Program-made: the position numbers and the translations under genes
Notes under the pieces: model-generated
The model's input: only the letters and a program-made list of their open reading frames with translations
Told to the model about the DNA's origin: nothing
Databases searched by the model: none
Shown: positions 19,267-57,215 of the stretch, piece after piece
Layout of the letters: the number at the start of each line of letters is the position of its first letter
Numbering within the stretch: position 1 is the first letter of the stretch
Assembly (NCBI GenBank): GCA_973895155.1
Contig: OZ316895.1
Span: forward strand, 14,700,816 to 14,764,815
Reading direction: 5' to 3'
Length of the DNA stretch: 64,000 nucleotides
DNA from: Marsupella aquatica
Lineage: Eukaryota > Plantae > Marchantiophyta

Positions 19267-19971
19267 CTAGAATTAAAAAACATACAGTTGAAACTGTGTA
19301 TTGGTGACTTTTGGTTATGCCAAGGAAGCAGGCAGCCAACTCGTCGAATAGCAACTGACATTGGAGTTCATGGTCTGACGAGCATAATTAAAAAGCTACG
19401 AGCCCTATGCCAGTGCTTTGCACTGTGCAAGGAGGGCAGGCCTCGCAGGGGTGTCGGGGCCAGGAGGGCGCGAAGCCCTATGCGGAGCGAGGAGGGTGTA
19501 AGGAGGGGGGCATGCGAGGCTGCTGTAAGAAGGGGGGCGAGCGAGGCAGCAGCCTCGCAGGGGTGTAGGGGCCAGGAGGGCGCAAAGCCCTATGCGGAGC
19601 AAGGAGGGTGTAAAGAGGGGGGCGAGCGAGGCAGCAGCCTTGCAGGGGTGTAGGGGGGGGGGGGGGGGGCGGGCCCTAAGCCCTATGCGGTTGCTCCAAA
19701 ATTGAATGCCTTTTGCCACGCGGAAGGCCTGTATGCTTCCGTCATTCTGAGTGCATGGAAGGGAGCAATTGTGTGGTCCTGTGCCTGCCTGCGTGCCTCT
19801 TTCCTGGCATGCGTGCCTCATTGTAAGAGGGTATTAGAAGATCGGACGGTCATGACAAATAAGATGTTTTTATTTGATGGTCAGTTGTGATTCCCGCTGG
19901 AATTCGAATTTGTAACGGGATGACGGACGAAAATTGGCCAAATGGGCGGGATTGCCTATTATAGTGTTAGA
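19267..19971 (-). mobile_element. Non-autonomous Helitron, 705 bp
   Basis: Minus strand begins A|TCTAACACTATAATA and ends with hairpin ACAGTT-TC-AACTGT, a T-rich spacer and CTAG|T. Inserted in an AT dinucleotide with no TSD. Internal G-rich tandem repeats at 19430-19690. Confidence 0.8.
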
Positions 19972-36300: not shown

Positions 36301-38401
36301 AAAGTTATTCTGCAACAACATTCTCTCAGGTAGTACAAGCACTTCACAAATATCATTGCCTTAGAATCAAGGCTATGTGTACAAATGCCCTTGAATGAAA
36401 ATCTGTGTATCCACTTTTCCTATCCGCCAAGCTTGTGAACCTTAATTTGTATTTTCATTGAAGGTTGTGGGCCATTTGTTTTTCCCTTTCCTGTGCCCCA
36501 AACGGCCGACCAAACTGGTCAAAATTACTTAGCTGCCCGTGAAACTAACTAAACTACCAGGCCTGCCCCCATTGGTACATGGGAGGCTTGACCAGACTAG
36601 CCTAACCCAAGATGACACATAATTGGTATGTGGACACATAAAGGCTTGTAACTTGTCCAAGCTAACCCCTTCCAACCATAAATGCGGGGGAAATGCGGGG
36701 AAACAAATGGGCTAGGTTTTGCTTACAGACAATAGCCTGCACCTGTGTCCTGGTGAATGGTGGAGGGGAGCCTGGTCTGCGTGAAGGTACAGTTGCAGGG
36801 GTTAACACAGGTGAACGGCAAGCCTCCATGTGTCCACAAACCAATTGCATGTCATATCAGGTTACTCTAGTCAAGGTAGGCCAATCCACATAAGAGATGG
36901 GCGCAACATGATAGTTAGATTATTTTTGGGCAGATTAATGATTTCAATCAGTTTGGGGGATAGGATAGTAAAAAAACACTATGGGCCATAATCTCCTCAC
37001 CAACTTGGCCAGGGGATTGGTTCACTTTAAGTCTATGTGATAATTTCATAACCCCCTGTTCTCATTTCTGTTGTGTAGCAAAGGTGGAGTTTTGGCCCCT
37101 GATTTGTTCACTTTGGGACCCTGGCTTACCTCCCTCTCCCTCCCGGCATTGTTGCATCCTCCAAAGATCATCATTTACTGATGGGTAGATAGTATTTTAG
37201 TTTCACGGCAAAAAGAAGATGATTAGATGAATACTAGCCTGATTACCAGTTCCTTTCACATAAATAGGGATGTAAAAAATGAACTTTGCAAAAAAAAAGG
37301 ATTCCATGTATTTCCAGTGCATCTTTGCTCCTATCCTTGTTTTGTTGTATGAACCCCCACTGGCAGCCATGCCCTCACTTAGAGTTATGATGTAGAGTTT
37401 TCACTCTAGACAGTAGGCCCATGGAGTAGCTTCCCACTTTCGACCATGCCCTCACTTAGAGTTACAATCGAGAGTATTCACTCTAGAAACTCTAGACAGT
37501 TGGCCCATGGAGTAACTTTGGATTGCGCTATATGAGTTAGATGGCCAAATAATTGCATGAGGGAGAGACTGAGGGAGAGACTAAGGTCTTGATAAGCCAA
37601 AACATGGGTAGCTAAGCATTGGCAAACAAATAACTATTGGATAAAGGAAAGACTAATAAGTTATATAGTTCGTATCACAGGCATAAGCTTTAGTATAGTA
37701 CTATAAAACAGGTCAGTTCAGCAAATAATGCTGCATTGCTGCCTACCCTTGTTTGTCACAACATGGGCAAAAGGGGGGTCAATGGAATCAACTCTTAGGT
37801 ACAGAGTACATCACTATATTCATTAAAACTGAAATTATAAAGGATATAGGGAAATTTGGCGATTTAAAAACATAGTTTTAGGCATGAATATTGTAAATTT
37901 GGAAGATGAAAAATGAAAATTCAAGCATCATTAAATGTAAATTTGGGGACAAAAAAATGAAATTTTGGGAAAGTAAAATATTAAATTGGATGATATTAAA
38001 AAACATTTGGGTGATAAAAGTGTTCATTTGGTTGGAAAATAGATAGAATCTAGTAATAACATATAAGCTTGGATAGCATCTATATTCAAAACATTTAGCT
38101 TGAGTAAGATATCTAACTAAGCACCAATACAATGGAATGACTATAGTGTCTAGACAAAGTTAACTAGGATGATATCCAACCTACTAGAAGGAATGAAATG
38201 GCATCATTTTCTAGAATTAAAATATACTAAGACAAATAAAATAATAATTATAAGAAAGTCCATTCAATAGCTTTGAGAGATCATAGAGTATTAATTTGAT
38301 TGTCTTGTTCTCTCACTTTAGACCAACGCATGGAAATCAACTCGACCCTCTTAATCACAAGTCATTTGAGTGGAGACTTGTAACCTACGAGTTCTATCAA
38401 T

Positions 38402-41400
38402 CTACTCATCAATTATACCTTCCATGTAAATTTTGAGAGTTTTCAAAACATTCTTAGGAATTGTCAAACCTCTATCCATAATATTTTGTTCTTTAGCACC
38501 TGACTTAAACCCATACATTGCAGAATTTGCAAACTGCCAACTTTGAGTAACATTGTCAAACCCAGGATCCAGCTCCCAAGTCTTAGTGGTTTGAAAGCAA
38601 CGTTCATATCGAACATCATCCTTCCATGTTTAGGCCTCCACCATTGTACTTGGAACATAGGAGCATTCCTAAGAGGAATGCTCTCAACAGACGTTGAAGA
38701 AGACCCTTCAATATGTTGCAAATCTGTTGAGGGAACCTCATGGTTTGGATCCACACCACCCAAAGCTCGAACCAACCAGAAACGCCCTTTGCCATTCTCC
38801 TGTTCCCATTCATCCTCTGGACGTAAAAATACAAAGTGACCTTCTTGAATATCTTGTAGAGGAATCCAACGTGCAGGTTCTCGCTCTTGTCGTGCACCAA
38901 CAAAGGGTGCAGCTTGATCTTCCATCTCTTCCATGTACTCATTTTGAAGGTCCATCATCTCTGGATTTTGAGAAGGTTCACTTGACGGCTGAGATGTCCC
39001 CAAAATCATCTTGTAACTTGTGCCATGGTTAGTCTTTGGCCAAAAATCAGTTGTCAATGGCAAATGTCTTTCCTCCTCCCCTTCTATTGTAAGTTCCTCG
39101 GACAGTGCTTGCACAAGATTCTCCCAATATTTGACCAGAGGAAATCTCTCTTTATATGCTGCAGAGGTCTCATCCTTACAACTTTTCTTCAAGAAATCAA
39201 TATAGCGATTAAGGAATGGGATGATTTCTCCAGCCGTCTTTTGTACATCCCCAGATATAGGTTTTGCAAATGGTTGGCCTTCCGGTAAAATGAGCGCATT
39301 TGTGATGGGATCAGTTCTCCAAATGGACCTCCCCATTGCCGGAAGCCAAGGTTGCTTGACATGTGCTTTATATTGATACACTGGCACATTATCCCTCATG
39401 GAGAAAAGAAATGCCACTGGTTTTGAGTGACCTTCTATCTCTTTCACCTGGAAAGTTTTCAAATACTCCTTGTAAGATGCAACCTCTTGAATCAATCGTG
39501 GTACATGATGAATGCTTTCACACTCCCAAACCTCAGCCATCAACCCCAAGAGGGTAGCAACCTCTTTGTATCTGACCTGTTTGGATACTTGAGAAAATAA
39601 TGCATCCACGTCTTCATGGGTGTGGCCAACCATGAGGAATGACATTTGCACAGTTTCAAACACCCCCCTGCTAACAAGCTCAATGCAAAATGCCATCACA
39701 TATTGATTTTTGTTATCTTTCCCTGAATTGTCCATTTGCAACGTTAGGTGCCTTGGTAAGGGCTTGAAAGAGCCCCTAGTAGTCTCAGGATCATCCTTAG
39801 AACCAACATCCACTATGGTTGACTTTTTAGTCTCCTGACCATCTTCAATGCCTTGAAATCGAACAATTGAAACATTTTTGGGTTCCAAGTAACCGGCCAG
39901 AAATGCTTCAAAGTCTAGAAGGGACTGAAATATTGGCCTAGTTGCATTCCAATTCAATCCCTCAAGAAGGTCTCCAGTTTTGTCTCCTGTGTAATCTTCC
40001 AAATCTCGGAGGCATTTGGCCAAAGATGTCACGGTAAAGTCTGCATCTCTAGGCCAAAGTCCAGTCAAACTGAAATGTGCATACACTCCAGGATCTCTTC
40101 CATGGGTTAACATCCCAGTAAGAGCAATAGGCAAAGGCTGACCACTACCAGAGAGGGATTTTGGAGTGGGGACCAACCTGGGGATCCAAGTCTTGGCTTG
40201 ATCCATCTTATCGTGAATAATGCAAAGATAGTTTTGAGGATCCTTCTTTGCAAGAACCCTATGAGCATAGTAAACATATCTTCTTGACATTTGTTCACGA
40301 AGATGTCGCGCTCTTTTCTCTTCAATCTCTGCACGCTCTTTTTTTCTCTTCTCCCGCATCAATTGATCTTTGAACTCAGTGCAAAATGTGCACTTGGCAA
40401 ATGCACTTCCCTTGTGAAAGTCAAAATTATCAAATGAGTTTTTCCAGATGTTGTACATAGTAACTTCAGTAACCTTAGCAAACCCATCTAATTCCATCTT
40501 GGTGAACACCTCTTGGAAAATCTTCTTCTTAGTAAAAGAAGATGGGAGCCGATATTCAATAGTGTCAGTGCCGTTGGACCCACCATAGGGAAGATGTGGC
40601 ATTGGTTCCCCATTTTGGATTAAAATGGACTCCAACAAGGCGCGAGCGTGCAAAGTGCTTGATCGTGTCTTCCGTTGTCCCTGATTTCCATGGAAACCAA
40701 TTGTGCAACCAGCTTCGTATTGATTTTTGTAGTCATAGTACTTTGTTGTATTGAACCCATGCATTTTAATAAATGCATCTTTACAAACCACACGTCCCTT
40801 TAGAACAAAAAATCCCTTTCTCTTGACTTGCTCCTCTCTACACCCAAAGAGACTAAAGATGTGACTTGTTTTGTTGTCACTTGACATTCCATGGTATTCC
40901 CTCCTCATTGCCTCTAAGTCCTCCCTGGGCATGTTCAAGCAACACTTCAGCTTGCAACAACCTTCTCTTTGGATGGAATCAATGGACTCCTCGTTAATTT
41001 TCAAAAGTGCCCTCGACTCCAAATGCCTTTTCTTCCTCTCCTCAAGATCAACTTTTGTCCTCCTAATGAAATTGTATGGTCTTTTTGTAGGTTTACCATC
41101 ACCATCCGAATCCGGATCGCCCTTAGTTCGACCCGACTCCATCCACTTCTCTGAAACTTCCTCAAGGATATCCCCAAGAAACCTTTGAGACGAAATCAAT
41201 AGAAGGGATTTGATTTCCCACCTCACCAAGCCAGGGGTACCAACACGGATATTTGGAAATAATCCGGGTTCATTGATATTCACAACAGCAACACCAACAT
41301 GATCTGCACCAAGAAGTTCATCGTCAACGGCACCTGTTTCAAATGGGACCGTGATAACACCTGTTGCAACCTTTCGACAACGAGAAGCGTCATACAAATC

Positions 41401-42105
41401 AACCTCCTCCGCCATCCAGTTGGAACGTAGTGTAAAATCTTTTAATGGAAGATCATTGAAAATATTTGAACTACCAAACACGCCAAAATCTCAAAGAGTG
41501 CCCTTTCTAGAAACATGCGCAACATCCCAGATAACCCAGGTATGCAAGGCCTCTGCTATTGTATCAGCTCCAGGGTGCGAGTATGACAATTTTTGATTTC
41601 CCTTAACAATATCAGATATTCTTATACTGATGCGACCAACCCCGAGTGTTTCAGTATGACAAATATCCATCGGATTTGTCTTGAAAACAACTCCATTTGC
41701 AACCAACTGATCAAAAATGAACATCTGAACTTCATCCCCTTCCTTGAACACGTCCTCTTCAACCCTTGCATCAATTTTGGATTTATCATTTCCAGCATCT
41801 CCAGCCAAAGAGAAATCATCGACATTGATTCTTCGGTGCTGAGTTGATGACCTCAAGTATGCCAATGCACAATCCCAAATCACGCAGGAGTCAATTGCCT
41901 CAGCCAATGTAGAAAATTTGGGCAAAGGAAATGGAAGTTGACGCGATCCATCAAAACACTTTTCGATCAATACCCCAATTCGATTGTCCCCTAGACAAAT
42001 GTTCTGTATAGTATCCTGGGGGTCAACCTTTTGAACTATCCCAATTGCCGTTTCAAATCCATCAATCACCAATGACACTTCATCCCCTCGTGTAAAATTG
42101 ATCAT
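38402..42105 (-). pseudogene. DD(E/D) transposase (Sola-like/DUF7869-type) with three N-terminal Tnp1/En/Spm-like domains; one in-frame stop and one late frameshift
   Basis: Motifs CIIHDKMDQAK, LQMDNSGKDNKN, FLMVGHTHEDVDALFS and FAKCTFC. ORFs 41491..42105 and 38464..41481 share a frame, separated by one TGA. A shifted frame from ~38620 (RYERCFQTTKTWELDPG...) continues to TAG at 38402. Confidence 0.85.
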
Positions 42106-42232
42106 GATAGCGGACTATCTGTATTCAAATAAAGTTAGAAATTGTTAAGTTCCCCATGTTACAATCATGTTTCAAAATCTGGACTCTCCTCCAAAAAATA
42201 TTGTAAAATCACTCAAAACCCTAAATACATTC

Positions 42233-42560
42233 AAGTCGGGTCGGAATTATTTCGACCCTCCTCCAACATTATGTCTTGAAATGATTGAATTGACTAAACA
42301 TTTACAAGTCGGGTCGGAATTATTTCGACCCTCCTCCAACAATATGTCTTGAAATGATTGAATTGACTAAACATTTACAAGTTGGGTCGGAATTATTTCG
42401 ACCCTCCTCCAACAATATGTCTTAAAATGATTGAATTGACTAAACATTTACAAGTCGGGTCGGAATTATTTCGACCCTCCTCCAACAATATGTCTTAAAA
42501 TGATTTAATTGACTAAACATTGATAAGTTGGGTCGGAATTATTTCGACCCTACTCCAACT
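42233..42560. repeat. 73-bp tandem array (4.5 copies), each unit with palindrome GGGTCGGAATTATTTCGACCC
   Basis: Units start at 42233, 42306, 42379, 42452 and 42525. A degenerate inverted copy lies near 42660-42682. Confidence 0.95.
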
Positions 42561-43722
42561 ATTAAGTTGAAATTATGTCAAAACTATTTGTGAAACTATC
42601 TTGCTTATGCTTTTATATACCAGTTTAAAATGCTAGTTAAGATGACATAGTCAGGTCGGCACGAAATAATTCTGACCCACTTCTAGAAACTATGTTAGTA
42701 ATCACATAAAGGGGTACAGTAAGTTCTACACATGCTAGACTGTGGATAAAGGTCTAGAATGAGTAAAATATATGATCTAGAACCTAATGTGTAAATCTTA
42801 ATCTAGGTTTGGCTTAAAGGTATTGAATTAGATGTAGTTGAGCTAGTACTTCTAAGATAAATAAATAAAATCACTAACCTGCTCCGCAATATATCTCTGT
42901 CCACCCTTGTACAAGCTAAATGGGTACCTTGGATGCCAGCATTGTAACTCTTAGCACCACAGTGCTCACCAGTGCCCTTACTAAACCTTGCATTCAACCA
43001 TGCGGACCTAAACAAGGCACTCGGACAGAGGAGAGTCAGTGATCGTACCAATCACTGTCTAAATGACAATGAACCAAAAAATGGATTGTGGGAGGTCTAT
43101 ACTCAGTTTGAGAGGCAAAAAGCCCACATATTACCCAACACACGAGTGGACACCAACAGATCGGGCACGGGTGGATGAGGCACGCACCCAGCACACAAGT
43201 AGACATCGGATAGGGTGTCAGCCAATCACTCACGAGTGATAGGTGAGTTGCGAGCACACACCGCTGACAGCTCGGAAGTTTAAAATTGGTAGGTGAGTCG
43301 CGAGTGGTCGTGAGTGGTCACACCATCGGTGACTCACGATCACATGCACCGAGGAGGGTCTCCATCATTGGCGCGCATTGATGCCTCCGTACCCTCTCGG
43401 ATCCTTGCCTCCTCGGACTCCTCGCTCGCAGGGGGTATAGGAAGGCAGGCCTTGCGCTTGAGGCCTCATTTCCTTGCCTCCCTCTTGCCTCCTCTCTCGT
43501 CTCCTCACTCCTTGCCTCCCTCTTGCCTCGCTCTAGGGCTTTTGTTTTTGCCTCGCTCTTGGGATTTGTTTTCCGCCTCGCTCTAAGGCTTTTATTTCCA
43601 CCTTGCTCCCTTCCCTTTTGGGTCGCTCCCTCGATCATTGTTTGCCTGTTAGTGCCCTCTTGCAGCCTGTGGCATTCTCCATTGCTGCCACGTGTCATCT
43701 TAAATCTCACTCGCCCCTTACA

Positions 43723-46700
43723 ATGTCTACTTCCTCCAGTTCTGAAGCTTCCACCACCTCCGCCAGTTCTCAAGAGTCATTGAACTTCAATTATAACTCT
43801 CTGTATGAATATGACCCTGAAGACCTGGATGTCCAAAAATTGGTTAACAATGCGTTGGAGGCGTCAAAGAAAGCCCAGTTAACTTTTCCACGTAAGGCAC
43901 CTCCTGCTTCAACTTCTTGCCTCGCCCTAAGGGCGAGGCAACTTTACTTTAATTTGGATTTCAAACTTCTTATTAGGAAAATTTCTATATTCCTTTGCAG
44001 TCGCCTCGCCCCAAGGTCGAGGCGACGTCTACTTCATTCTAGATTTCTTGTTGCTCCGAAGGCGTATTGGACCTTGTATCTTACATTAATAAAGGATCTT
44101 TAGCTATATTCTATTTTTTGCCTAGCTCTTGGGGCGAGGCGATGTCGTCTGCATTCCTCAAATGTAGTTTGCATTCCCAGAAGTTGCCTCGCCCTTGGGG
44201 CGAGGCAATGTCCTCTACATTCCTAAATGTTGTCTGCTTTCCCAGAAGTTGCCTCGCCCTTGGGGCGAGGCGATGTCCTCTGCATTCCTAAATGTTGTCT
44301 GCTTTCCAGAAGTTGCCTCGCCCTTGGGGCGGGGCGATGTTGTCTGCATTCCTAAATGTTGTTTGCTTTCCTAGAAGTTGCCTCGCCCTTGGGGCGAGGC
44401 GATGTCGTCTGCATTCCTAAATAATGTTTGATTGCTTGGATGAGGTGGCAGGGCTAATTGCACTAGGAGCAAAGAAGATTTTGCAATCTTCTATTTGTCG
44501 CCTCGCCCCAAGGGCGAGGCACCTTGAAAGTTTTCCACATGTCAATGTTAAAAATATGATGCTGACCATTTTGTTTTCAATGTTTCTTACCAGGAAAAAA
44601 TCTTGAGAAGCCGGAGTTAAATATTATGGACGAGGATATCAAGGACTTTGTTTTCCCTGACCAAGATACTCTAGGATTTAGATGGGCACTAGAAGTTGGG
44701 GTGTCGGCGGAAGGCAGTCTCTTGATTTGTTTCAAGGGCCTCACAAGTCAATTGAATGACCGCAAGACAATTGTTACTCTAGGTCCAGTCGTCCTTGTGA
44801 ACACGGACAACAACCGCAATGCAACGATTATTGTTGAGTCCAATGAGAAATCTCAGTGGATGAGACTTCTAGTGCCAATAAAACTCTACTCGACTTTACT
44901 GAATGTTGAGTGGATGGCTCGATTGGAGATAAGCGTAGCTGATATGGGATTCTTCCCAGATGGAGTAACAATTGATCAGATGTTTGAGAAGACGCGTTCT
45001 CAAATAAGTGGAGTTGACCTAGTGTTTGGATTTCTCTACGTAAAGAAGCACATGCATGACAATGCGGACAGTGTGGACCCTCCGTCTACTTGGATAGTTC
45101 AAAGGATGATTGATAAGGCACATTTTTCATACGAGCAAGCAATCGACAAGAGTTTCATTTTTTGTCCAGAGTTTCAAGAGGCCGCGTGCCGGACGTGGAT
45201 TTCAGAGATGAAGAAAAAAGAAGCAAAGCATAAGGCAAAGGAGAGAAAGAAGACAGTGGAAAGAAGTGCGCAATCAAAGACAGAGAAGAAACGAAAGCTT
45301 CAAGAGCCGGTTGTTCAACAAGAGAAACAATCTGGGAGTTCACGCCGTAAGAAGATGGCTAAAAAAAATGAAGATGATGAGGGCCCCCAAAAAAAGCAGA
45401 CAAAGAAGGCAAAGGTTGCAAAATCAAAACCAATGTCAGGGTCGACTTCAAACTTTGTCTTGCATCCAAAGGATGATATGTGTCCGACAGAAGGACCCAA
45501 AGAAGATGATGTGCTCAAAGGCCAAGAGGTTTTGCGTAATATTGAGCAGTATTATACTTTTGGCATCCGCGAAGTTTTTGATATTCCTGTAAAAAGTATT
45601 AATCCGCCATCGGCCATTTTTGTATATCGAATGTTCAATCTTTTGCATGCAATGGAGATATCAAAGTCTATGATGAAAAACCCTGGACAGGAACCACAAG
45701 TTGCTGATTTGATTCCGTATCACGAGAGCACTAAACAGTTGCTTCATTATGACAACACACCTCAGGATAGGAAAGAGTTTTTGATTGGTGTGAAGAAGCA
45801 TGAGATCCAATTCCTTGCCATCAGTGGCCAGCATTCTGCAAGAGCTGCCCAATGGATCCAAGGGTGGGCCGAGACTAACGCCAAGCTGACAGATCTTGCC
45901 AACAAACTAAAGTATAGGAAAGCAAGGATCCTATCTGACCTCACTCCGAAGACAATTTTGGTTGAACATTCAAGTTTATCGAATGCTGTCAATGATACTA
46001 TGCAATTTAAGTCTTGTTTTTTAGAGACTATTGTTCATGCACGAAGGCAGTTTGAGGAGTGCGGGAAACCGCCGCGTCCAGGGATTGGGACCAATCAAAA
46101 TACAGACAGGAAAAACTATCAGGTACATGTTGGAGCAACGCAAACTATTCTTGATCCGCTTTGTTTAAAGATTGTCAATGGTAGAGGTTTGCCTTGCCCC
46201 AAGGGCGAGGCTGCCTTTTCTTGTTTTCCTTGGTTAGAAGATTAAAGCAAATGTTTGCCTCGCCCTCAGGGCGAGGCAACCTAGACTAGTCTCTCTAAGA
46301 ATAATTCCCTAGTTCCGTTTCAGTCAATTGCGGTTAGATGTAGAGGTTCGCCACGCCCTTGGGGCGAGGCGGCTTAGCCTGTTTCAAACATAGGTATAAA
46401 TTTTCTAACATATGCATTGTACCCTGAAACTAATGTCAAGTCCATTGGATATGCAGGATTGGTTTGCCCTGGCAAAGGTTACAATGGGGAAGTCAAGCCT
46501 AAAGAGCATTTATTGGTTACTTTTTGCCGAAGATGAGCTCTTTGAATTATGGCGGAACGTGTGTGCAAAATGGTTGAGTGGGAAGCTCCAAGACGGGGCT
46601 GGTGGGTATGGAGGGCCAAGACCCCCAAAATTGATCACTCCCGGTACCTTTCGATGCTTTGAAGGAGAGATTAGTAGCAAACAGATAATTGAGATCTTGA

Positions 46701-48654
46701 AGGACGTTGAAGAGGAGCGTGTCTTGCTGAAGAAGGATATCACCAACAAATCAGAGCTTGTCGCAATGGGAGACTTGGCCCTTACAATCAAGATAATGTC
46801 CAAATTGAGAACAGCCATTATTGGCTATTTCGTGGAAAAGTATCGTGAGAAGTTTCCTGTTGGCACATCTTGGGAGTCTCTGGTGATATTGTTGCCTTCC
46901 TTGAAATCTGAGCTTGAGATGACAAAATTGAGGAGAGCAGCGGGTGAGGTTTACCTCAACAATTCATTGAAGAAGAATGTGGTCAAGGAGAGTTTCCCAC
47001 AAAGTCTGATGGTCAGACTAGATGGGTTGTATTGTAAAGAATTTGGTGGGATTGGTCGTTCTCGCACGGAGCCTTTCTTGACATTTTTTAGTGAGAATTT
47101 GATGAAGACGACCGTGCCGGAAATGCTACAAGAGCCTTCGCCTTTGTGTCCTCTTGCCATTGTTGACTTCAGTAGGCTCCGACAACATGTTTGGACCGAT
47201 GCTGAAATTATTGCATTACTACAATACATTGTGGATCTTCCAAGAAATCCAACAATTGTTGTTGTCATGACTATGCATCCGGGGCCACTTGCTGCAAACA
47301 TTTTGAGTGCCCTTAGGAAATTGCAACATGAAAAGGGAATGGACATCCACGTCGACTATGGGAGCTATCGACAGAGTGATACACCAGTTCCAGAGGGCTT
47401 ACTTTTCAGTTGTGGTATGGAGGAGATAATCTTTGCAGGAATCACCACTGAGGAGAAATTTGATTGGAAGCAAGTGTTCAGGCCTGGATTTAATTGCCAA
47501 TTTTCTTACAATTCGGCGATCGACCCTGATTTCCAAGTGGAAGACAAGACGGAGAAGCGAGATAAGAATAAGAGTAAGACAAGTAAGGAGACAGTGACTG
47601 CGTCAACTTCGGCATTTCACATTGGAGATTTCTTACGAAAGGCTCCCATGTTTGAGATGGTGGGAAGTAGAGGTGGCTTTGTGAATATTCACGCTAAGCC
47701 AAAATGTATGCTGCAGAGTATTATTGAATTTTTTTCGGCTGAAGGGGAGACTATACTTGACTTTTTCTCGGGAAGACAGGTTATGAAGGTGTCATTGTTG
47801 TGTTTCAGAGAATGCTTTGCGTATTCAGACACTGAGGATGAATATGATTTCACTCAGGCATATGGAAGGGTTCTCTGCGAGAAAGTTCCTTCCATAATGA
47901 GTGACCGGATGGGCGGTTCCAAATTTGGTAGAGCCCGCGATGGGGTTTCCGCGCATGTTGGTGCCAAAGAAGGCGTAGACCAGGGCGAAGATGATATTGA
48001 GGAAGGAGAATTGGGTCACGACACAGACGACAGGGTCACCCGAAATTTGGATGAACGTGGAACACAAGTGGTAGGTATTCCCTACTTTGGTGTGGGGTTG
48101 GCTGATGTTGTGGGTCGACCTGAGGGCGACCCACCAAGAAATCCCTTTGCCGGTGTAGAGAATTGGATGCACCAATCGGACCCAGATCTTACATCGTCCA
48201 CATCGGACGCACATTGGAAGGCAACCGCAGATGGTCTAGGCAATATTGACGTAGTAGAATTGGGAGAAATGTCAGACATTGCGCTTGCAAAGGAGGATGA
48301 TCGTCAAGTACCTGAGACCGTTGCAAATGAAGAAGAGAAGGCAGGTGCTTCAAATCCTCCCGTCTCCTCTATATTGCTCATCAGAGACTAAATTGGTTTT
48401 TACAAGTGCTTCTACAGGAAGCCCCGTAGTATTATCATTTTCACAAAATTCTGGATCTGAGATCGGCAGGACTGGATATATGAAAACAGTCCGTCCTGCA
48501 ACTCATTTTATATGGAGAAATGGACCAAAGGTTGGAATGATAGAATCACTAGACGATGCTCCAAAGATAATGGCAAAATCAGATTACAAAAAACTGAACT
48601 TGAGACTGAGCCCAGTTTTTGCACCCCCATCCTTTGAAGAGCAACTTCCCAGTG
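43723..48654 (+). CDS. Spliced transposon cargo gene: unknown N-terminal domain, K-rich segment, ParB/Srx-like domain, N4/N6 DNA methyltransferase-like domain
   Basis: Frame-compatible GT-AG introns 43892-44593 (phase 1), 46123-46456 (phase 0) and 48345-48417 (phase 1) join the ORFs. ParB-like FDIPVKSI...YR...FLAISGQHSARAA. MTase-like HAKPKCMLQSIIEFFSAEGETILDFFSG...ECFAYSD. The 3' end is uncertain. Confidence 0.72.
43917..44522. repeat. Intronic array of 21-bp palindromes GCCTCGCCCTTGGGGCGAGGC (~65-bp tandem unit in the core)
   Basis: Copies at ~43919, 44003, 44120, 44186, 44251, 44315, 44380 and 44500. Three more at ~46191, 46257 and 46350 in intron 2. Confidence 0.93.
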
Positions 48655-49088
48655 GTATCAATTCCGGGATACAGAGTGTTCTAGGTGATCAAACAATAGA
48701 TGAATTTGGGCATTTTAGCATTGGAAATTATTAGCCCATTCTTTGGTTCTTGGTATTTTAATGACAATCTAAGCTTTATCTTTGTAATAATATACTTTTT
48801 TACAGACCAAAGTTCCGTCGTAGAATCTCCTTCCTCAAAGGATTTTGTTGGCATTCCCTCGGAAAGCGTTGCTGTGGAGGAAGGGTTTGACCCAAGTATA
48901 CTTTGGATCTAAAAAATGGCAATTGAATGTAATTAATGTTTTTCTAGGAGGGTCGCCCCAGGGTCGTTCCTCTCTACTTCAAATGCTATAACAAAGTTTG
49001 TTTGATTTCAAATTTTGAGAGTTTTCCTCTGTAGTAATTGTTTAAACTTTGAGTCGCATTGACTAAGGGCTTATGTTAATGTTTCCAG

Positions 49089-50128
49089 AATTCACTCCAA
49101 TACTACACTCTCCGATCCGGCGAAAGCTCTTGGTTCTTGACCTTAACAAGATTTGTTGGGATTGCATTAAGACCAGAAGCTCAGGACCATGGCGAAATCA
49201 GACAAGTTTACGTGGTGTGCACTGGGGGAGACGTGGAGGGTTTAATTTCATGTATGTGGAGCGCCCATACCTCCACGAATTTCTATATGCAGCTTTCATG
49301 GTTTTTGACGTCGCAATTTGGACCTGTGCAAGGAGGCCAAAAACAATGGACTTAATGGAGTTGATTTTCACTAAGGAGGAGCGATAGAAGTTCAAGTTTG
49401 TCTTTACTCAAGAAGATACCTTTGATAGTTGCATCCAAAGGCCAGATATAACAGATGGGAAGGCCAATTTACTTCTGAAGAATTTGCAAACCATTTGGGA
49501 CCGTTTTCCAGAAAAATATGATGCTTCTAATACAGTTCTTATTGATGATTCTCCATTGAAGGCATTTTTGAATTATGACATGAATGGATTGTTTCCAAAT
49601 CCATTTACTCACACAGCTTCAAATGACACTTTTTTGCCCGAGATATTATGGCCGTATCTTTGCAAATTGAGAAAGGCTTACTGCGTTCAACATTATATCA
49701 CTGTCAACAATCCAAAGTGGTCTGTTTTCAATTTATTAACAAGCAAGGAGGATCATGCTGCCATCTATGCTCTTTTGGAACAGAAGTGGGGAGATTGTCG
49801 TTGTATCCATAGGGAGTTTGGAACCATCTTGGATGTGACTCCTGAAGAGATTCCTTGGGACGGAAAGAACGAGGTGCAGCATTACCCACCACTGGAGACG
49901 TGGACCACGGATGAGATCGAAGAAACTGCAAACGTAATACTTGGAGACAACTATTCTGGTCCTCATACACAAAATAGAAGGTATTTTATTTGGAAAGTTC
50001 TCAGAACTAGGGATCTCACCAATAAGTTTAAGAACCACCATGCGAGAGATACTTGCAACCGTGACATCCGCTATGATAAATCAGGAAGCAGACTTTCTTG
50101 TTCAAATGAGTTTTGTCTTGATCATTAG
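49089..50128 (+). pseudogene. FCP1/NIF-type HAD phosphatase-like domain with Cys/His-rich tail; one in-frame stop (49385)
   Basis: RKLLVLDLNK, ERPYLHEFL, FDVAIWTCA, LLKNLQTIW, NTVLIDDSPLKAFLN. ORFs 49073 and 49484 share a frame. Confidence 0.8.
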
Positions 50129-51174
50129 GAGATAGGGTTGCTCTAGTGCCTACCCTGAATTGTACATTCATATTATGTCTTGAAAGGATATGTTTTGAAC
50201 ATGTAGGATAAAGTAAATAATTAGGATATATGCTTAGTGTGAGGCTCTCTCACTGGACTGGATAATTTAATAATTATATAGTGGATCAATCTCATTTTGA
50301 CCCTTGATTTATGACCATCTATATTTTTTAATTTATAGATGGTCTGAGTGGTATTGGCCTCTGATTTTTGGACTAAATTAAATTACTCTAATTTTCAAAT
50401 TAATTAGAATATATGATTTAAGTTATTATTAAACATTTGGGTGAAAAAAAACAAAATTTTGGGCATTCAAAAGTGTATATTTGGGCTGAAAAAATTAGCT
50501 TTTGGGAATGCTTTAATAGAAATTTGGCCTGAACAAAAATAACTTTAGGGTTCATCTTATGGACTTTTAAAAGTACAGTTTTAATGAATATAGTGATGTA
50601 CACAGAATCAGGAAAAGTGTGTGAATGTTTAAGGGTTTCTATAGCATTTATTGCATGTAGAGGCAACTTGACATCACCTACAGTCTACCGTGTATATGTG
50701 CAGCGTGTATAACTGCATTTCATGGGTAACTGTAGGGTGGTCATGTAATCCCTCAATAATACAGCATTTGTTTTTGTAAATGCACCAAAAAATGCATGGT
50801 CTGTAGGGCATTTTCCATCTATAAGAGTACATATGCATTAATCCATATGTTAGAAGCATTTATTGACAAGTGCAGCAGATAACTACACATTGTAGTTTCA
50901 TGCACTTATCCAGTTGGATTTGCACTACGGGGATTATGGATATGAGAAGTCGATGCACATGACCTGACGAGACATTTGTGAAATGCATGAGCGATTTCTT
51001 AGGCACATATTGGAAAGTGCAACATGCACTTATGAAGAAGTGCATAACGTGGATAACTGCAGGCTTGGGGTGTCTTCCTGGGAGTCTACACTTAGACATG
51101 GTAGGCTGTATTTACCCTTCCTGGCATATGGGAGACTCTATACATTGCAAAGGTCTAATGTCAAGGGTGCATGA

Positions 51175-54100
51175 TGTGGGGAGAAATCAGATCAGGAAAA
51201 ACACTCCAAACATACACGTGCTCAATAGTTACGTGGTTCGCCTCAAGGTTGGCTACGTCCACGGGAAGACCAAACTTTATTAACGGTTATGTGTCTACTC
51301 AAGCATCACCATAGCTCTCATCTCTTCAAGCTCTCCTCTCTTGCTATATCCCTGGTTCTCTCTTGAGAACTCTCTTGTTTGTTCTCACACCACATAGAAG
51401 TTGAAGAGATAAGGACCAACCCTTCAACTAGGGTTTACTCTAACCCTAGTTAACATACTAACCATAGTTCAACCCAAGACTGAGTTAACCTCTACAAACT
51501 CCCCCTTGACTCACGTCTTGGGAGGGTTCATAGCATTGTCTTTTCCTTACAAGTTCCTCCGCGGGACGTTCAAGACAGTAGGGCCAAAAGACCCTCCCCC
51601 TAATGCAAGGGTTAACTAGAACTAAGCCGTAGCCGATAAGCCATCGGATGGAGTACTCATATAAAGACATTTTCTTGGTTAACTCTATATTTACAATATT
51701 TGTAAATAATTACAATGCCTTGAAAAACTATTGGAGTCTAATACTTTGGTAAAAGCATCCGCTGGATTAAGCTTTCCATCAATCTTGACAAGCTCAAATT
51801 CATCATCCGATAATGCCTGTCGGATGAAATGATAGCGGACATCAATGTGCTTTACCCTGCCATCCATCACTTGATTCTTGGTAGTGTAAATTGCACTTTG
51901 ACTGTCACAATGAAGATATACACACTCCTGTGATAAACCCATCTCTGTGACAAGATTTTTCAACCAAATGGTCTCTGATGCTGCTTCTGCTGCTGCTACA
52001 TACTCGGCATCCATAGTAGACTTTGCAACACACTTTTGGAGAGTAGACTTCCAACTAATGCATCCACCAGCAAGTGTAAATACATATCCAGTTGTCGATC
52101 TCCTCTTATCCAGATCACCTGCGTAGTCTGCATCCACATAACCTTGAAGCACTTTCATATTGTTTGAACTTGCATCAAACAATAAACCCTTCTTAGTGGA
52201 GCCTCTGATGTAGCGCAAAATCTATTTCACTGCTTCCCAATGAACTTTTCCTGGATTTGCCATGTATCTGCTTACCTTGCTAATGGCATAAGCTATGTCT
52301 GGTCGGGTGCATACCATGAGATACATTAAACTACCCACAACACTTTCATAAGGAACTTTGGACATCAAACTTTTTTCTGTCGCATCTAATGGACAAAATG
52401 CTGCAGAAATATTGAAATGCCTTGCCAAAGGAACACTCACAGCCTTAGCATCTGCCATGTTGAATTTTGAGAGTACCTTCTCTGCATATCTTTTCTACGT
52501 CAGCCAAAGTTTGGCTTTGTTAACATCCCTGACAATCTCCATGCCTAGGATCCTCTTGGCTGTGCCCAAATCCTTCATCTTAAACTCAGAACTGAGTTGG
52601 GCCTTAAGCTTATCAACTTCGCCCCTATCCTGTGCTACAATGAGCATGTCATCCACATAAAGTACAAGGATGACAAGCTTAAAACATGTGTTGTTCACAC
52701 GCCTTATGTAAACACATGGATCGTACACGCTTCGCACAAATCCAAGCGATTTCAAAAATTCATCAAAACGCTTGTTCCACTGCCTTGGGCTCTGCTTTAA
52801 TCCATACAAGGATTTTAGCAACCTACATACCAAATTTTCCTTGCCCTTTTGCACAAAACCCTCTGGTTGCCTCATGTAAATCACCTCATCCAACGATCTA
52901 TATAAGAATGTCGTGACAACATCCATTTGATCTAAAACCAGATCAAATAAAACTACAAGAGCACATAGCAAACGTATTGTTGAATACTTTGCTACGGGTG
53001 AAAAAACCTCATTGTAGTCTATACCTTTCTGTTGAGTAAAACCCTTGGCTACCAACCGAGCCTTAAATATCTTCTCAGCATCCTCCGTGGGTCCATCTTT
53101 CTTCCTATACACCCACTTGTTGTCAACAGCCTGCTTATCACTGGGTAGACTTGTGAGTTCCCAAGTCTTGTTATCATGAAGTGATTTCATTTCCATGCGC
53201 ATCGCCGCCTGCCACTGTTGCTTCTCCATAGAAGCTAGGACCTCTCGAAATGAGGATGGATCTCCATCTTCTGTCACCAATGCATCAATAGATTCTTCAT
53301 CCAAATCCACTTGATCAGATTGAAGCCAAGTTCCATACCTTTCCCGGGCTTGACGTTTGCGAGTTCCTCTTCGCACTGAAGACTCTGGCTGATTTGATTG
53401 TACTGTGCTTTGCCTTACAGTGGTGTCAACATATTCATTATCTGACACATCCTTTCCCCTTATATCCTCTAGAGGAGGAGATTGCTCTTTGTTAGTAGTA
53501 GGGAATTGATCTATCTCCCCTTCCTTCAATGATTTTTCTTCATTGAAGGATACATCCTGACTAACAAGTAACTTGCAATCAGCTGGATCCCACAACCGAT
53601 AACCTTTAACTTCACGCTGATAACCAAGAAAAATGCATTTCTAGGCTCTAGGATCTAGCTTAGTCCTATTGTTGCTAGGAACATGTGCATATGCTTCACA
53701 GCCAAAAACCCTAAGCTTTGAATAATCAGCAGGTCGATTGTGCCATAGCTCAAAGAGGGTTTTGTAAGTAATTGCCCGACTAGGAGAGAGATTTACTAGA
53801 TAAGCAGCTATGTTGACAGCTTCCACCCAAAAGATTTGTGGCAATTTAGAGTGGCTCAACATGCTCCTTGCTCGCTCCAACAATGTGCGGTTGAGTGCTC
53901 AGCAACACCATTTTGCTCAGGAGTGTACACAGTTGTGAGATGGTGAGTAATTCCCTTATTTGCACAATACGTGTTGAACTCGCCAGAGGTGTATTCACCA
54001 CCATTATCTGATCGTAGATATCTCACATTCTTTGCAGTCTGTGTCTCAACTTGAGCTACCCATTGTTTAAAGATGGAAAGCACTTCAAACTTATGGGCAA

Positions 54101-57100
54101 TGAAATAAATCCAAACAAACCTTGAGTAATCATCGATAAATGATACATAGTATTGTTTGCCTGAATGTGAGGAAACCGGAGCAGGACCCCACACATCGGA
54201 ATGAATATACTCAAGTACAACTTTAGAATGATGAATGGCAGTCGGAAATGGAGTTCTTGTTTTCTTGCCAACAATGCAATGATCACAAAAACTCAACTTG
54301 TATGCTTGCAATCCTGGTAGGAGATGTCGCTTGTGTAAGATTTCCAAACTTTTTTCACTCATGTGACCAAGCCGAGCATGCCATAAATTGATTTTCTCCT
54401 CCTGAGATGTGACCAAATTGACTTCGGCAAGAAGTGTGGTGCCTTCCAAGACATAGATATTTCTTTTCCTCTTGCCAATAAGAACTTCAGTTGATCCATG
54501 CGTGACTGTTAACACCCCATCAGTTGCACTCCATTGATAACCCTTCGCATCCAAGTAGCCAAGAGAAATCAAATTCTTACACATTTCTGGAATGTGTCTA
54601 ACATTTGATAGAGTACAGTACTTGTCACCGGGTAGTTGAATCTTTACGGATCCAATCCCTAAAACTTTGCAAGAATGATTATTTCTCATCAAAACAGATC
54701 CATGGATAGGAGTGTAGGATGAGAAAAGTTCACGCATATAGCACATGTGATACGAGCAAGCGGAATCCAAGATCCATTGACAATCCTCAACTTGGGAAGT
54801 GGTACACAATGAAAATCCTTCACTATCCTCTTCTCGAACAACTACTTGGGCTGAAGAACCGACAACTTCCTTGAATGTGTCTTTGACGCGAAAATCCTTC
54901 TTCATGTGGCCCACTTTGTCACACTTCCAACACTTTATCTCACGAGTAGACTTGGATGGTGATTTGGATCAAGATCTAGATCTGGATCTAAACCTCCTCC
55001 TACCAAAAGATCGATCGTGGAACCTTCCTCGCTCCATGGGAAGTGGGTTAAACCTTTTGTTTTCATGAGATGGCTCCCTTGATTTACCTCTTTCTACCAA
55101 CAGTGTTGTTGATGATGAGGTTGAGGTAGGATGAGTTGAAGAGACCAGCTTAGACTGCATGTCATCGGTCAACTGGGCACTCACCACATCATTGTAGGAT
55201 ATAGTTATCTTATCACGGAATAGAAGAACTCGAGACAAAGATTGGTACGAAGGTGGTAGTGAGCTCAAGAGTTGTAAGGCTTTCTTTTCTTCGCTCAAAT
55301 GCTCCCCCAAATTCTCTAGGTCAACCACAAGATCATTGAACTGATCGACATGATCTTGAATCTTAACTCCATCAGCCATTTTGAATTGCATGAGCTTCAG
55401 GCTTGCATACATTCGGTTTGACATCTCCTTCTTGTAGTACTTGTTGCGCAATGCTTGAAACAAGTCCATCACCGTTTGTGTTGCTTTTTCCTCGAACTGC
55501 TTCTTCACATTGTTTTTCAGGTACATGCCAATAATACTTACCGCTTGATCCTGGAGATCATGCCAATCATCATCTTCCATCTCCTTGGGTTGAGATCTTA
55601 GTACCTTGCCTAGGCCCATCGCCCTAAGTGCATCCCTCACGTTACGTTCCCACATTGTATAATCCATCCGACCATCAAATTTTTCCACCTCAAACCTTTG
55701 ACCTCCAATCCTAGTAGTCGCCATCACTGGAATACCAAATGTAGTGTGGAGTCGCCTTCCGATAAGAAATAAACATCGAATGCTCAGATGTGGGGTGTGA
55801 AAATAAGACCAAAAATGAAAGTTGGTGAATTTTGAAACTGATCACTCCTATGTGTAGCCCACAAGGTAACGCTCCAAATTCTGAAAACGGTTTGTCAAAT
55901 GGACTCTCGAGTGCCGAGAATTTTTACTCCGACCGGAGGGGGTAAAAGATGAAATAATTACCCCTTGAGGGAATCTCTTATGCCAAAGATTCCACTAGTA
56001 TAATTTTTCAGAATTGAACGCACCAATATTTGCCTAGCTTCCCCAAGTATGCCTCTCCAAAAGTTGAAGTTGATCCGATTTTATTTGCCGCTCGGAATTT
56101 TTGACCTTCGATAAAAATTTAAGCCTCTGGAAAAAGAATCTTTTCGGGAAATTCCGTCCGCCCTTGTACAGCCCCTGTGGGAGATTTCACAGGGGGCACT
56201 TCCCCCTGCCCGAGCCCTGTCGAGCCCTAAAAGGCCTCCTCGAAGTTTTTGACCTCCTCGTGCGTCCGCGGAAGTCGCAACTACTCACGGCAGAAAGTAC
56301 CCCTCGGTGGATTCACTCAAATTCCCATCTCAGTTTTTGACAAAATCCAATTCTGATTTCAGATTCAGAAACTAGACTTCGAGGGCATCAAGATTGATAT
56401 AAAGAACTCACAAACGGTGGAGTAATGAGGGAGAAACAATTCGGTGAAAGTGACTGATATTAAGTTATCCGCCATAGCCAAAATTTCGAGCTCAAAAAAC
56501 GAGAATTGAAATTAAGATTGCTTCTCAACCGTTTCACGGAATTCAACGATGTTGATATCGAAACGTCTAGAAAGACAAGGCGCTCAAGCGTATCTCAGTT
56601 TCAAGTCCCGATAGAACAATCAAAAAGACTGATCTGAGAAATTGACCTTATCTCTTGCCCGATAACGTAAATTGAAAACCGTCACTTACAATTATTTCCG
56701 TTTCTGACCTCAGGCCTTCATTGCTTCACTGAAATGAGCCCCTGGTTGTGTGCTCCACACTTGTGAGAAGATTGAGTCCGATCTTCTTTCAATAGCTCCG
56801 CTTCGAAGAGGAAATCATTCGCTGTTCGCTTTGCTTGAAGAAAATTCTATGGAGTTCCTAATCGACTGAAAAAACCTGAGCTCTGATACCAATTGTGGGG
56901 AGAAATCAGATCAGGAAAAACACTCCAAACATACACGTGCTCAATAGTTACGTGGTTCGCCTCAAGGTTGGCTACGTCCACGGGAAGACCAAGCTTTATT
57001 AACGGTTATGTGTCTACTCAAGCATCACCATAGCTCTCATCTCTTCAAGCTCTCCTCTCTTGCTATATCCCTGGTTCTCTCTTGAGAACTCTCTTGTTTG

Positions 57101-57215
57101 TTCTCACACCACATAGAAGTTGAAGAGATAAGGACCAACCCTTCAACTAGGGTTTACTCTAACCCTAGTTAACATACTAACCATAGTTCAATCCAAGACT
57201 GAGTTAACCTCTACA
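51175..57215 (-). mobile_element. Full-length Ty1/Copia LTR retrotransposon with disrupted gag-pol
   Basis: 322-bp LTRs TG...CA at 51175-51496 and 56894-57215 (2 differences seen). TSD CATGA. PBS TGGTATCAGAGC (tRNA-iMet) near 56880-56891 and PPT near 51499-51507. Gag, PR (WILDSACSYH), INT (IHSDVWGP, RSDNGGEY), RT (LYVDDML) and RH (YVDADYAG, KHIDVRYH). Confidence 0.97.
51691..55727 (-). pseudogene. Copia gag-pol polyprotein with 4 in-frame stops and 1 frameshift
   Basis: Stops at 54969, 53641, 52495 and 52222. Frameshift at ~53860-53900. Confidence 0.92.

Follow-up and report, generated by a model that had tools for sequence, protein, structure and literature searches.

The element and its dyads

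In a 64,000-nucleotide stretch of the liverwort Marsupella aquatica genome (GenBank assembly GCA_973895155.1, contig OZ316895.1, positions 14,700,816 to 14,764,815 of the forward strand; hereafter the window, whose numbering is used throughout), we found a DNA transposon with terminal inverted repeats (TIRs) that spans 12.8 kb (37806-50601) and carries two arrays of 21-bp palindromes, or dyads, in its middle. Array A lies upstream of the transposase gene, and array B lies in two introns of a divergent accessory (cargo) gene, whose product is predicted to hold ParB/Srx-like and methyltransferase-like parts. The two start codons (transposase ATG 42105, minus strand; cargo ATG 43723, plus strand) are separated by 1617 bp. 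The element is laid out as follows:

37806..37841, left TIR of 36 nt, with 92% complementarity to the right TIR (50566-50601); target duplication ACAGA, 37801-37805
38464..42105, minus strand, transposase gene, Sola/DUF7869-like; ATG at 42105, in-frame TGA at 41493-41491
43723..43891, plus strand, cargo exon 1; ATG at 43723 (not 43724), donor CAC/GTAAGG, phase 1
43892..44593, plus strand, cargo intron 1; eight B dyads, and a 65-bp tandem repeat at 44118-44430
44594..46122, plus strand, cargo exon 2; weakly PH-like N-terminal domain, lysine-rich linker, ParB/Srx-like domain
46123..46456, plus strand, cargo intron 2; three B dyads (46191, 46257, 46350)
46457..48391, plus strand, cargo exon 3; helical region, then beta-class methyltransferase-like domain; frameshift near 48375 relative to homologues
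49067..50128, plus strand, NIF/FCP1-like phosphatase open reading frame (ORF); PF03031 at E 1.3e-06, in-frame TAG at 49385-49387
50566..50601, right TIR; target duplication ACAGA at 50602-50606 (5 bp)

By its sequence, the transposase appears Sola/DUF7869-like, matching PF25273 (DUF7869) with an E-value of 1.9e-43 and 148.8 bits (cut-off 26), and 93-98% of its Atlas neighbors carry DUF7869. For the cargo gene, splicing exons 1-3 gives a frame that stays open for 1210 codons and then stops, and the intron borders fit this frame. The exon 2/3 junction is bridged by an annotated protein of the liverwort Calypogeia fissa (P0004), and the position of intron 2 is also supported by ORF-called relatives that continue, from the same residue onward, into the intron. 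The nearest protein relatives come from C. fissa and further assemblies, with 30-57% identity. The NIF/FCP1-like ORF probably also belongs to the cargo gene; methyltransferase-like and NIF domains are fused in relative P0094, and a NIF domain also occurs in P0146 and P0150. Hence, the accessory protein may include a part resembling an RNA polymerase C-terminal-domain phosphatase. All three coding parts are broken in the window copy, the transposase by its TGA, the cargo gene by the frameshift and the NIF part by its TAG.

We found 18 dyads, each built of two 9-bp arms around a 3-bp center (9+3+9), that fall into four sequence classes (A, B, and single sites at 41114 and 48112); all are inside the element, and they cluster around the 5' ends of both divergent genes. 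The array, the single sites and the partial sites outside the introns are:

41114..41134, extra dyad GGATCGCCCTTAGTTCGACCC, inside the transposase coding sequence; full core, the sense strand encoding GRTKGDP
42232..42559, array A, a 73-bp tandem repeat of 4.5 copies with 96% matches, 127-454 bp upstream of the transposase ATG
42658..42678, minus strand, degenerate inverted A-like copy; three mismatches, one TCG changed to TCA, right arm disrupted
43525, 43550 and 43575, plus strand, three B-like left half sites GCCTCGCTCT... (GCCTCGC) in a 25-bp tandem repeat at 43523..43608, 123-198 bp upstream of the cargo ATG
48112..48132, extra dyad GGGTCGACCTGAGGGCGACCC, in a low-confidence (disordered) linker of cargo exon 3; full core, encoding GRPEGDP
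48950..48970, plus strand, partial site GGGTCGCCCCAGGGTCGTTCC; one mismatch to the core, two GGGTCG half sites

The first-pass annotation of this DNA had described array A as five copies upstream of the transposase and array B as 11 copies, all in cargo introns 1 and 2, and had called both 21-bp palindromes with two CpGs 11 bp apart. These descriptions were all borne out. Array A holds five exact copies of the dyad GGGTCGGAATTATTTCGACCC, at 42238, 42311, 42384, 42457 and 42530, each a 9+3+9 palindrome with one G:T pair. The array B pattern, GCCTCGCCC-N3-GGGCGAGGC, gives 11 matches with up to three mismatches, versus 0.00 expected: six are exact (43919, 44186, 44251, 44380, 44500 and 46257), four have one mismatch (44003, 44315, 46191 and 46350), and one has two (44120). 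The eight from 43919 to 44500 are in intron 1 and the remaining three are in intron 2. Since five of them (44120 to 44380) are in, or at the edge of, the one 65-bp tandem repeat of intron 1 (91% matches), these five are not independent. In A and B alike, TCG occupies positions 4-6 and CGA positions 16-18, which sets the CpGs 11 bp apart. The three-nucleotide center of B is TTG in six copies, CAA in three, and TAA and TCA in one each, and the flanks are constant in orientation. Hence, centers in both orientations within flanks in one orientation indicate that the loop flips in place.

Two further observations touch the B sequences. Five of the seven GCCTCGC heptamers found outside the element lie in a GC-rich repeat of about 112 bp at 19440-19690 (heptamers at 19440-19632), where the order GCGAGGC...GCCTCGC is the reverse of that in the B dyads. 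Within the transposase coding sequence, 38662-38682 is a perfect 9+3+9 palindrome (AGCATTCCTAAGAGGAATGCT) without the TCG core; its 10-mer GCATTCCTAA recurs in the 65-bp B repeat units, maybe by chance (about 0.3 expected).

The shared core and its conservation

The spaced motif TCG-N9-CGA, which had been proposed as a core common to both arrays, has 22 matches versus 4.40 expected. Using only the letters common to A and B, we built the stricter core G-N2-TCG-N9-CGA-N2-C and found 14 exact matches in the 64-kb window, all 14 inside the element, where shuffles give 0.15. Twelve of these are A and B copies, and the other two are the single sites at 41114 and 48112, so that 14 of the 18 dyads keep the core intact. 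The 51.2 kb outside the element contain no match (0.16 expected), and when one mismatch is allowed, the eight matches found there are at chance level. In the element minus array A and both introns, there are two core matches versus 0.029 expected (P(≥2) = 0.0003, from 3000 dinucleotide-preserving shuffles). Hence, the TCG-N9-CGA core is real, recurrent and specific to the element.

The two single sites resemble A and B only across the 21 nt, and their flanks are unrelated. We found 16/21 identities of 41114 to A and 14/21 to B, and 15/21 identities of 48112 to A and 16/21 to B, versus 10/21 between A and B themselves; the 48112 dyad has its outer arms as in A and its inner arms as in B, and it lies in a linker (residues 485-633 of the exon 3 model) with a predicted local distance difference test (pLDDT) score below 50. 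Hence, the earlier statement that A and B are otherwise unrelated does not wholly hold, since the arrays also share G1, T10 and C21 and the two single sites are intermediate. Across the four classes, positions 1, 4-6, 16-18 and 21 are invariant, and positions 2, 3, 8 and 9 change together with their pairing partners. Invariant CpGs amid paired stem changes fit sequence-specific recognition better than structure alone. Half sites are also present: GGGTCG occurs nine times in the element outside array A, versus nine times in the four-fold larger rest of the window.

The B dyads had also been said to be kept even where their flanks differ, and within the window copy we found this to be so: among eight representatives, the arms are 93% identical, whereas flanks of 20 nt agree at 37% when compared in one orientation and at 27% when inverted, against 25.5% for random intron 20-mers. 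Kept arms with decayed flanks indicate either old duplicates of a longer unit whose flanks are nearly randomized or arms that are being homogenized.

The window stretch, or part of it, is present in seven sequencing runs, and we compared the window copy with other copies in contigs of four public runs, with the differences taken from 40 of the 302 variant rows. At least three organisms carry multiple copies of the element, and the other copies are mostly 95-99% like the window copy. We found that array unit number varies between paralogs through gains and losses of whole units: the joint 44138>44491 marks other copies without the 65-bp array, 44241>44275 marks copies without single dyads, and 46128>46213 marks copies without the first intron 2 dyad (46191). 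Among 26 non-coding variant rows, one is in a dyad versus about 3.3 expected. That dyad CpGs are protected from decay found no sign in the CpG observed/expected ratio (0.56 both for the element and across the whole window) or in the 33 best-supported differences. Nine of these 33 are CpG elsewhere versus TpG or CpA in the window copy, one of them inside B dyad 46191 (TTG in the window, TCG in other copies), and several more window-copy differences are at CHG sites, the signature of methyl-cytosine decay.

A metagenome scan with the exon 2 profile gave 44 stretches that matched the pattern, none confirmed, and a viral contig scan gave 43, again none confirmed. With the B word, a metagenome scan gave 119 stretches with one match each (median GC 0.62), none encoding a relative of the three element proteins; these were rejected as candidates, as they look like unrelated GC-rich hairpins and are uninformative on the element.

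The accessory protein and what the dyads may do

We modeled the exon 2 product with AlphaFold from a 15-sequence alignment and obtained a pLDDT of 72 overall and of 80-94 in the ParB/Srx-like part. Residues 325-470 of this model match the N-terminal ParB/Srx domain of ParB, Noc, KorB and PadC, which fill all of the top 11 rows of the fold search; the best match is Myxococcus xanthus ParB residues 37-132 (Z 9.5, rmsd 2.3 Å, 95 residues). Hence, the cargo protein is predicted to have the ParB/Srx N-terminal fold. The Pfam scan of six element ORFs gave only DUF7869, a weak N6_N4_Mtase match and NIF, with no ParA-type partner among them.

The exon 3 model (pLDDT 71) matches CcrM (E 1.8e-07) and M.PvuII (4.0e-07) in Foldseek, followed by M1.HpyAVI, M.RsrI and rotifer N4CMT, and a profile of 21 exon 3 sequences matches M.RsrI with an E-value of 2.8e-09. 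Hence, the modeled exon 3 product is a beta-class N6/N4 methyltransferase-like fold. A search of 1.84 billion representatives at E ≤0.001 gives its family 190 members; among the 23 members scanned, 13 have weak N6_N4_Mtase matches, three of them at or above the cut-off, and three have a NIF domain. In Pfam, the matches extend over just the C-terminal half of PF01555, mostly with scores below the cut-off. The S-adenosylmethionine (SAM)-binding motif I is FFSGG in relatives and FFSGR in the window copy. The canonical catalytic motif IV is D/S-P-P-aromatic; at its presumed place, we found a strand ending in ..AIVD-F-S-R, where the family shows D-F-S-R or other residues, with only the D (D237) nearly invariant in 21 relatives and no PP-aromatic. 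From this degenerate motif IV, methylation, and catalysis at all, seems doubtful.

We tentatively favor, at somewhat less than an even chance, the reading that the 21-bp dyads are cis-acting docking sites for a dimeric, sequence-specific protein that acts on the element. Sequence recognition, over mere folding, is favored by a core that stays fixed while paired positions change, by half sites lacking partners, and by single sites with unrelated flanks in four contexts. The top candidate for the binder is possibly the accessory protein with its ParB/Srx-like and methyltransferase-like parts. Each half of the dimer would read one G-S-N-TCG half site, leaving the 3-bp center free, and the free three-nucleotide center of B fits such an uncontacted spacer, as expected. 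The CpGs, 11 bp or about one helical turn apart, would both lie on one face of the helix. Like operator or parS clusters, the arrays would load many copies of the protein beside the promoters; KorB is active at operators close to promoters. The loaded protein would set transcription or silencing of the element, and for decayed copies such as the one in the window, this regulation would be in trans.

In its fullest form, the proposal is that a Sola transposon of a land plant has distributed the word G-S-N-TCG-N9-CGA-N-S-C over its promoter region, over both cargo introns and over coding sequence in each of its genes, and that a dimer of the accessory protein, with its ParB/Srx and pseudo-methyltransferase parts, reads this word, as a eukaryotic counterpart of parS or the KorB operator, and controls silencing or copy number of the family in trans. 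We consider this extended version unlikely.

Several results weigh against the docking-site reading, beginning with the protein. ParB is not found by sequence alone in Pfam, NCBIfam or PDB searches, and the fold match is limited to the N-terminal nucleotide-binding domain, with alignments that stop at about residue 132. No helix-turn-helix (HTH) domain was found in the models, where the helices after the ParB/Srx part are split between two models at intron 2. The CTP-binding box of ParB is arginine-rich; in its place, SGQHS is invariant in 15/15 sequences, and the GERR-type box is not kept. The cargo product had been called a ParB-MTase protein in the first pass, and of this name, the ParB/Srx-like and methyltransferase-like folds stand, whereas the HTH was not matched, the box is SGQHS and motif IV is degenerate. 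The first-pass proposal that the arrays are binding or methylation targets of this protein is supported in part.

The sites give further reasons for doubt. As A and B differ at 11/21 positions, one protein would have to rely on about four bases per half site, and since GCCTCGC is clustered in the unrelated repeat at 19440-19632, the element has no monopoly on the half-site word of B. Sites 41114 and 48112 both encode GRxxGDP in the sense direction, and so a shared peptide motif is an alternative for these two; relative P0003 (49% identical) has GGPDGD at the place of 48112, which cannot encode TCG. In relative P0018, the 33-residue intron read-through tail is compatible with GCCTCGC...GCGAGGC around a longer spacer, and the N9 geometry would then not hold. 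We take this as no more than a hint: in a specific test, chance pairs arise at about 2.3e-4 per residue (69 in 300000), or about 0.008 for the 33-residue tail, and a generic palindrome test is weak (37/913 control windows score as high). The read-through tails of P0010, P0012 and P0020 were too short or gave no palindrome signal.

Because the element copy is young, intact dyads alone prove little. Units 2-5 of array A vary in seven columns, all of them outside the dyad (P = 0.082; unit 1 was excluded as partly non-repeat), and the CpG just upstream of the A dyads is lost in 2/5 units versus 0/10 dyad CpGs lost (P = 0.095), which is weak evidence for constraint. In one run, about 2892 of depth is without the 46191 copy versus 4408 with it, and in another organism all contigs are without it. 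Hence, individual B copies are dispensable. The window copy also decays by CpG loss like an ordinary methylated transposon, which gives no sign that the dyads are protected.

Of the alternatives, the strongest holds that the arrays are neutral by-products, hairpin-prone minisatellites produced by slippage, template switching and gene conversion, with core and coding sites alike due to common descent or chance and without function; we regard this as unlikely, yet a serious contender. Part of each array is a young tandem repeat (a 73-bp unit with 96% matches in A, a 65-bp unit with 91% in B), and paralog gain and loss borders fall at or beside dyads (44138>44491, 44241>44275, 46128>46213, 46175>46253 and 43471>46263). 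Loop flipping in B suggests hairpin-templated mutation, the window copy is dead in all its coding parts, and its CpG decay is ordinary. Slippage, however, does not account for single copies that sit in two introns and two coding regions and have unrelated flanks, and to keep arms at 93% identity beside flanks at 37% would take selection or a highly efficient conversion confined to 21 nt. The extra pair of core matches (P = 0.0003) also speaks against chance.

Alternatively, the dyads may act as nucleic-acid hairpins or duplexes, through intron folding, effects on splicing or small RNAs, or as DNA cruciforms; in RNA, they would form local 11-12-bp hairpins, or duplexes of 25-29 bp between B copies. 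We hold this, too, to be unlikely, yet a serious contender. On either strand, a single B unit folds with -20 to -23 kcal/mol (z about -6), and intron 1 RNA is predicted at -292.7 kcal/mol versus -201.9 for shuffles (z -11.8), with copies paired to each other. Since B copies with TTG and CAA centers are exact reverse complements over 21 nt, duplexes of 25-31 bp between copies are predicted (inverted repeats I7 and I8). With all 11 B copies intronic in a single gene and both extra sites exonic, 13 sites would be transcribed if the genes are. Just outside the B arms, the pair varies as T:A (three), C:G (two) and T.G (four), a variation that RNA would tolerate. Site 41114 pairs better on the sense strand (G.U) than on the other strand (A.C), the TTG and CAA loops within flanks of one orientation are as hairpin-mediated flipping would yield, and the P0018 tail may share this outer stem, with its inner part extended.

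Against folding as the function, structure alone leaves unexplained why TCG and CGA are invariant in four classes while neighboring pairs change, and it does not explain half sites without a partner arm. We found six single changes in the 9-bp arms of five B copies, none of them compensated. Array A is intergenic and folds weakly (-12.8 and -12.0 kcal/mol, equaled by four and five of 200 shuffles). Dicer-type processing needs stems longer than 9 bp, for which the 9-bp stems alone are too short, and a search of Rfam 15 gave no match at gathering score in 37800-50650 on both strands.

That the dyads are methylation targets, with N4-methylcytosine (4mC) or N6-methyladenine (6mA) on TCG/CGA blocking or replacing host 5-methylcytosine silencing, is in our view improbable. 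This reading draws on the beta-class amino-methyltransferase fold predicted for exon 3 (including its M.RsrI profile match), on the FFSGG motif kept in relatives, on the 4mC or 6mA predicted for the algal homologue in the accessible part of PMC12477816, and on the extensive 4mC described for Marchantia sperm in the portion of 10.1101/2021.02.12.428880 available to us. It meets the degenerate motif IV, the half coverage of PF01555 by mostly sub-threshold matches, the FFSGR of the window copy and the ordinary CpG decay of that copy, dyad 46191 included. Insertion of the B units as miniature inverted-repeat transposable elements or miniature foldbacks was rejected, as the 11 B copies have no flanking target duplications and their flanks show only palindromic extension (T:A, C:G or T.G) with no direct duplication.

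Outside these subjects, we noted further features of the element and its surroundings. Its subterminal regions (37999-38013 and 50430-50444) hold A/T-rich ..TTTGG(G) words, with AAACATTTGGGTGA common to both in the same orientation rather than inverted; these words may be transposase-binding repeats. The heptamer ATTTGGG shows no enrichment across the window (22 versus 13.9 expected). Directly right of the element, 51175-57193 has a pair of 300-bp direct repeats (99% identity), spaced 5719 bp apart, and looks like a young long terminal repeat (LTR) retrotransposon, with long minus-strand ORFs at 52495-55841. At the window start (1-1177) is a foldback of nested inverted repeats of 53, 34, 364 and 36 nt, 94-100% complementary.

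Comparison with known systems

The element belongs to a published kind, the Sola element with a ParB-methyltransferase accessory gene, here in a bryophyte host. As described in the accessible part of PMC12477816, Sola1-1_Ec32 of Ectocarpus encodes a 1104-aa ParB-like and DNA methyltransferase accessory protein on the strand opposite to the transposase, and ParB-methyltransferase accessory genes, published in 2025, occur in transposons of brown, green and red algae. Against that description, the Marsupella element agrees in being a giant Sola-type cut-and-paste element with an opposite-strand accessory gene whose product exceeds 1100 aa and has the same two kinds of domain; it differs in its land-plant host, its degenerate motif IV and the NIF/FCP1-like part downstream. 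The role of the accessory protein is only speculated on in that part of the paper, where it is proposed to bind and modify its own transposon; the same part makes no mention of palindromes and describes no cognate sites. We found no published cognate sites for such accessory proteins in the literature searched, with subscription papers, including the red-alga paper, outside the search.

New in this element is a single core to which two distinct arrays and two coding sites all conform; a 21-bp word with this fixed core occurs in four of its contexts and is missing from the 51 kb around it. As the word is defined, it supplies a concrete set of probes (A, B, 41114 and 48112), and the question of binding or methylation is directly testable.

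A closer parallel in the sites is VANC in the VANDAL elements of Arabidopsis, whose targets, in the portion of PMC5735166 available to us, lie in non-coding parts of the element, often as tandem repeats, and differ considerably from one related element to another. Both cases have a transposon-encoded accessory protein and non-coding tandem motif arrays that vary between copies. The proteins are unrelated, and our sites are dyads that also occur in introns and coding exons; binding and hypomethylation are demonstrated for VANC, whereas the sites here are candidates. If binding is true, this would be a second case beside VANC, mechanistically different, of a transposon-borne regulator with fast-evolving target arrays.

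With ParB-parS, Noc and the KorB operator (PDB 7bnk, 7bm8, 6sdk, 7ol9 and 8qa8), the candidate system shares the predicted ParB/Srx N-terminal fold and clustered palindromic sites. Unlike them, only ParB residues 37-132 are matched, the box is SGQHS, the six ORFs scanned contain no ParA-type partner, and the sites are 21-bp sequences of the element's own with a free 3-bp center. If binding is true, bacterial ParB-type logic would enter plant epigenetics.

Among plant transposons, En/Spm TnpA is said to bind repeated CpG-containing motifs, direct and inverted, at the 5' end of the element's gene, in the promoter and a GC-rich downstream control region, and to counter methylation there. Superfamily and protein are different in the Marsupella element. 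By analogy, the candidate site system would work most like the VANC target arrays and also resembles ParB and KorB operator clusters, as a member of neither.

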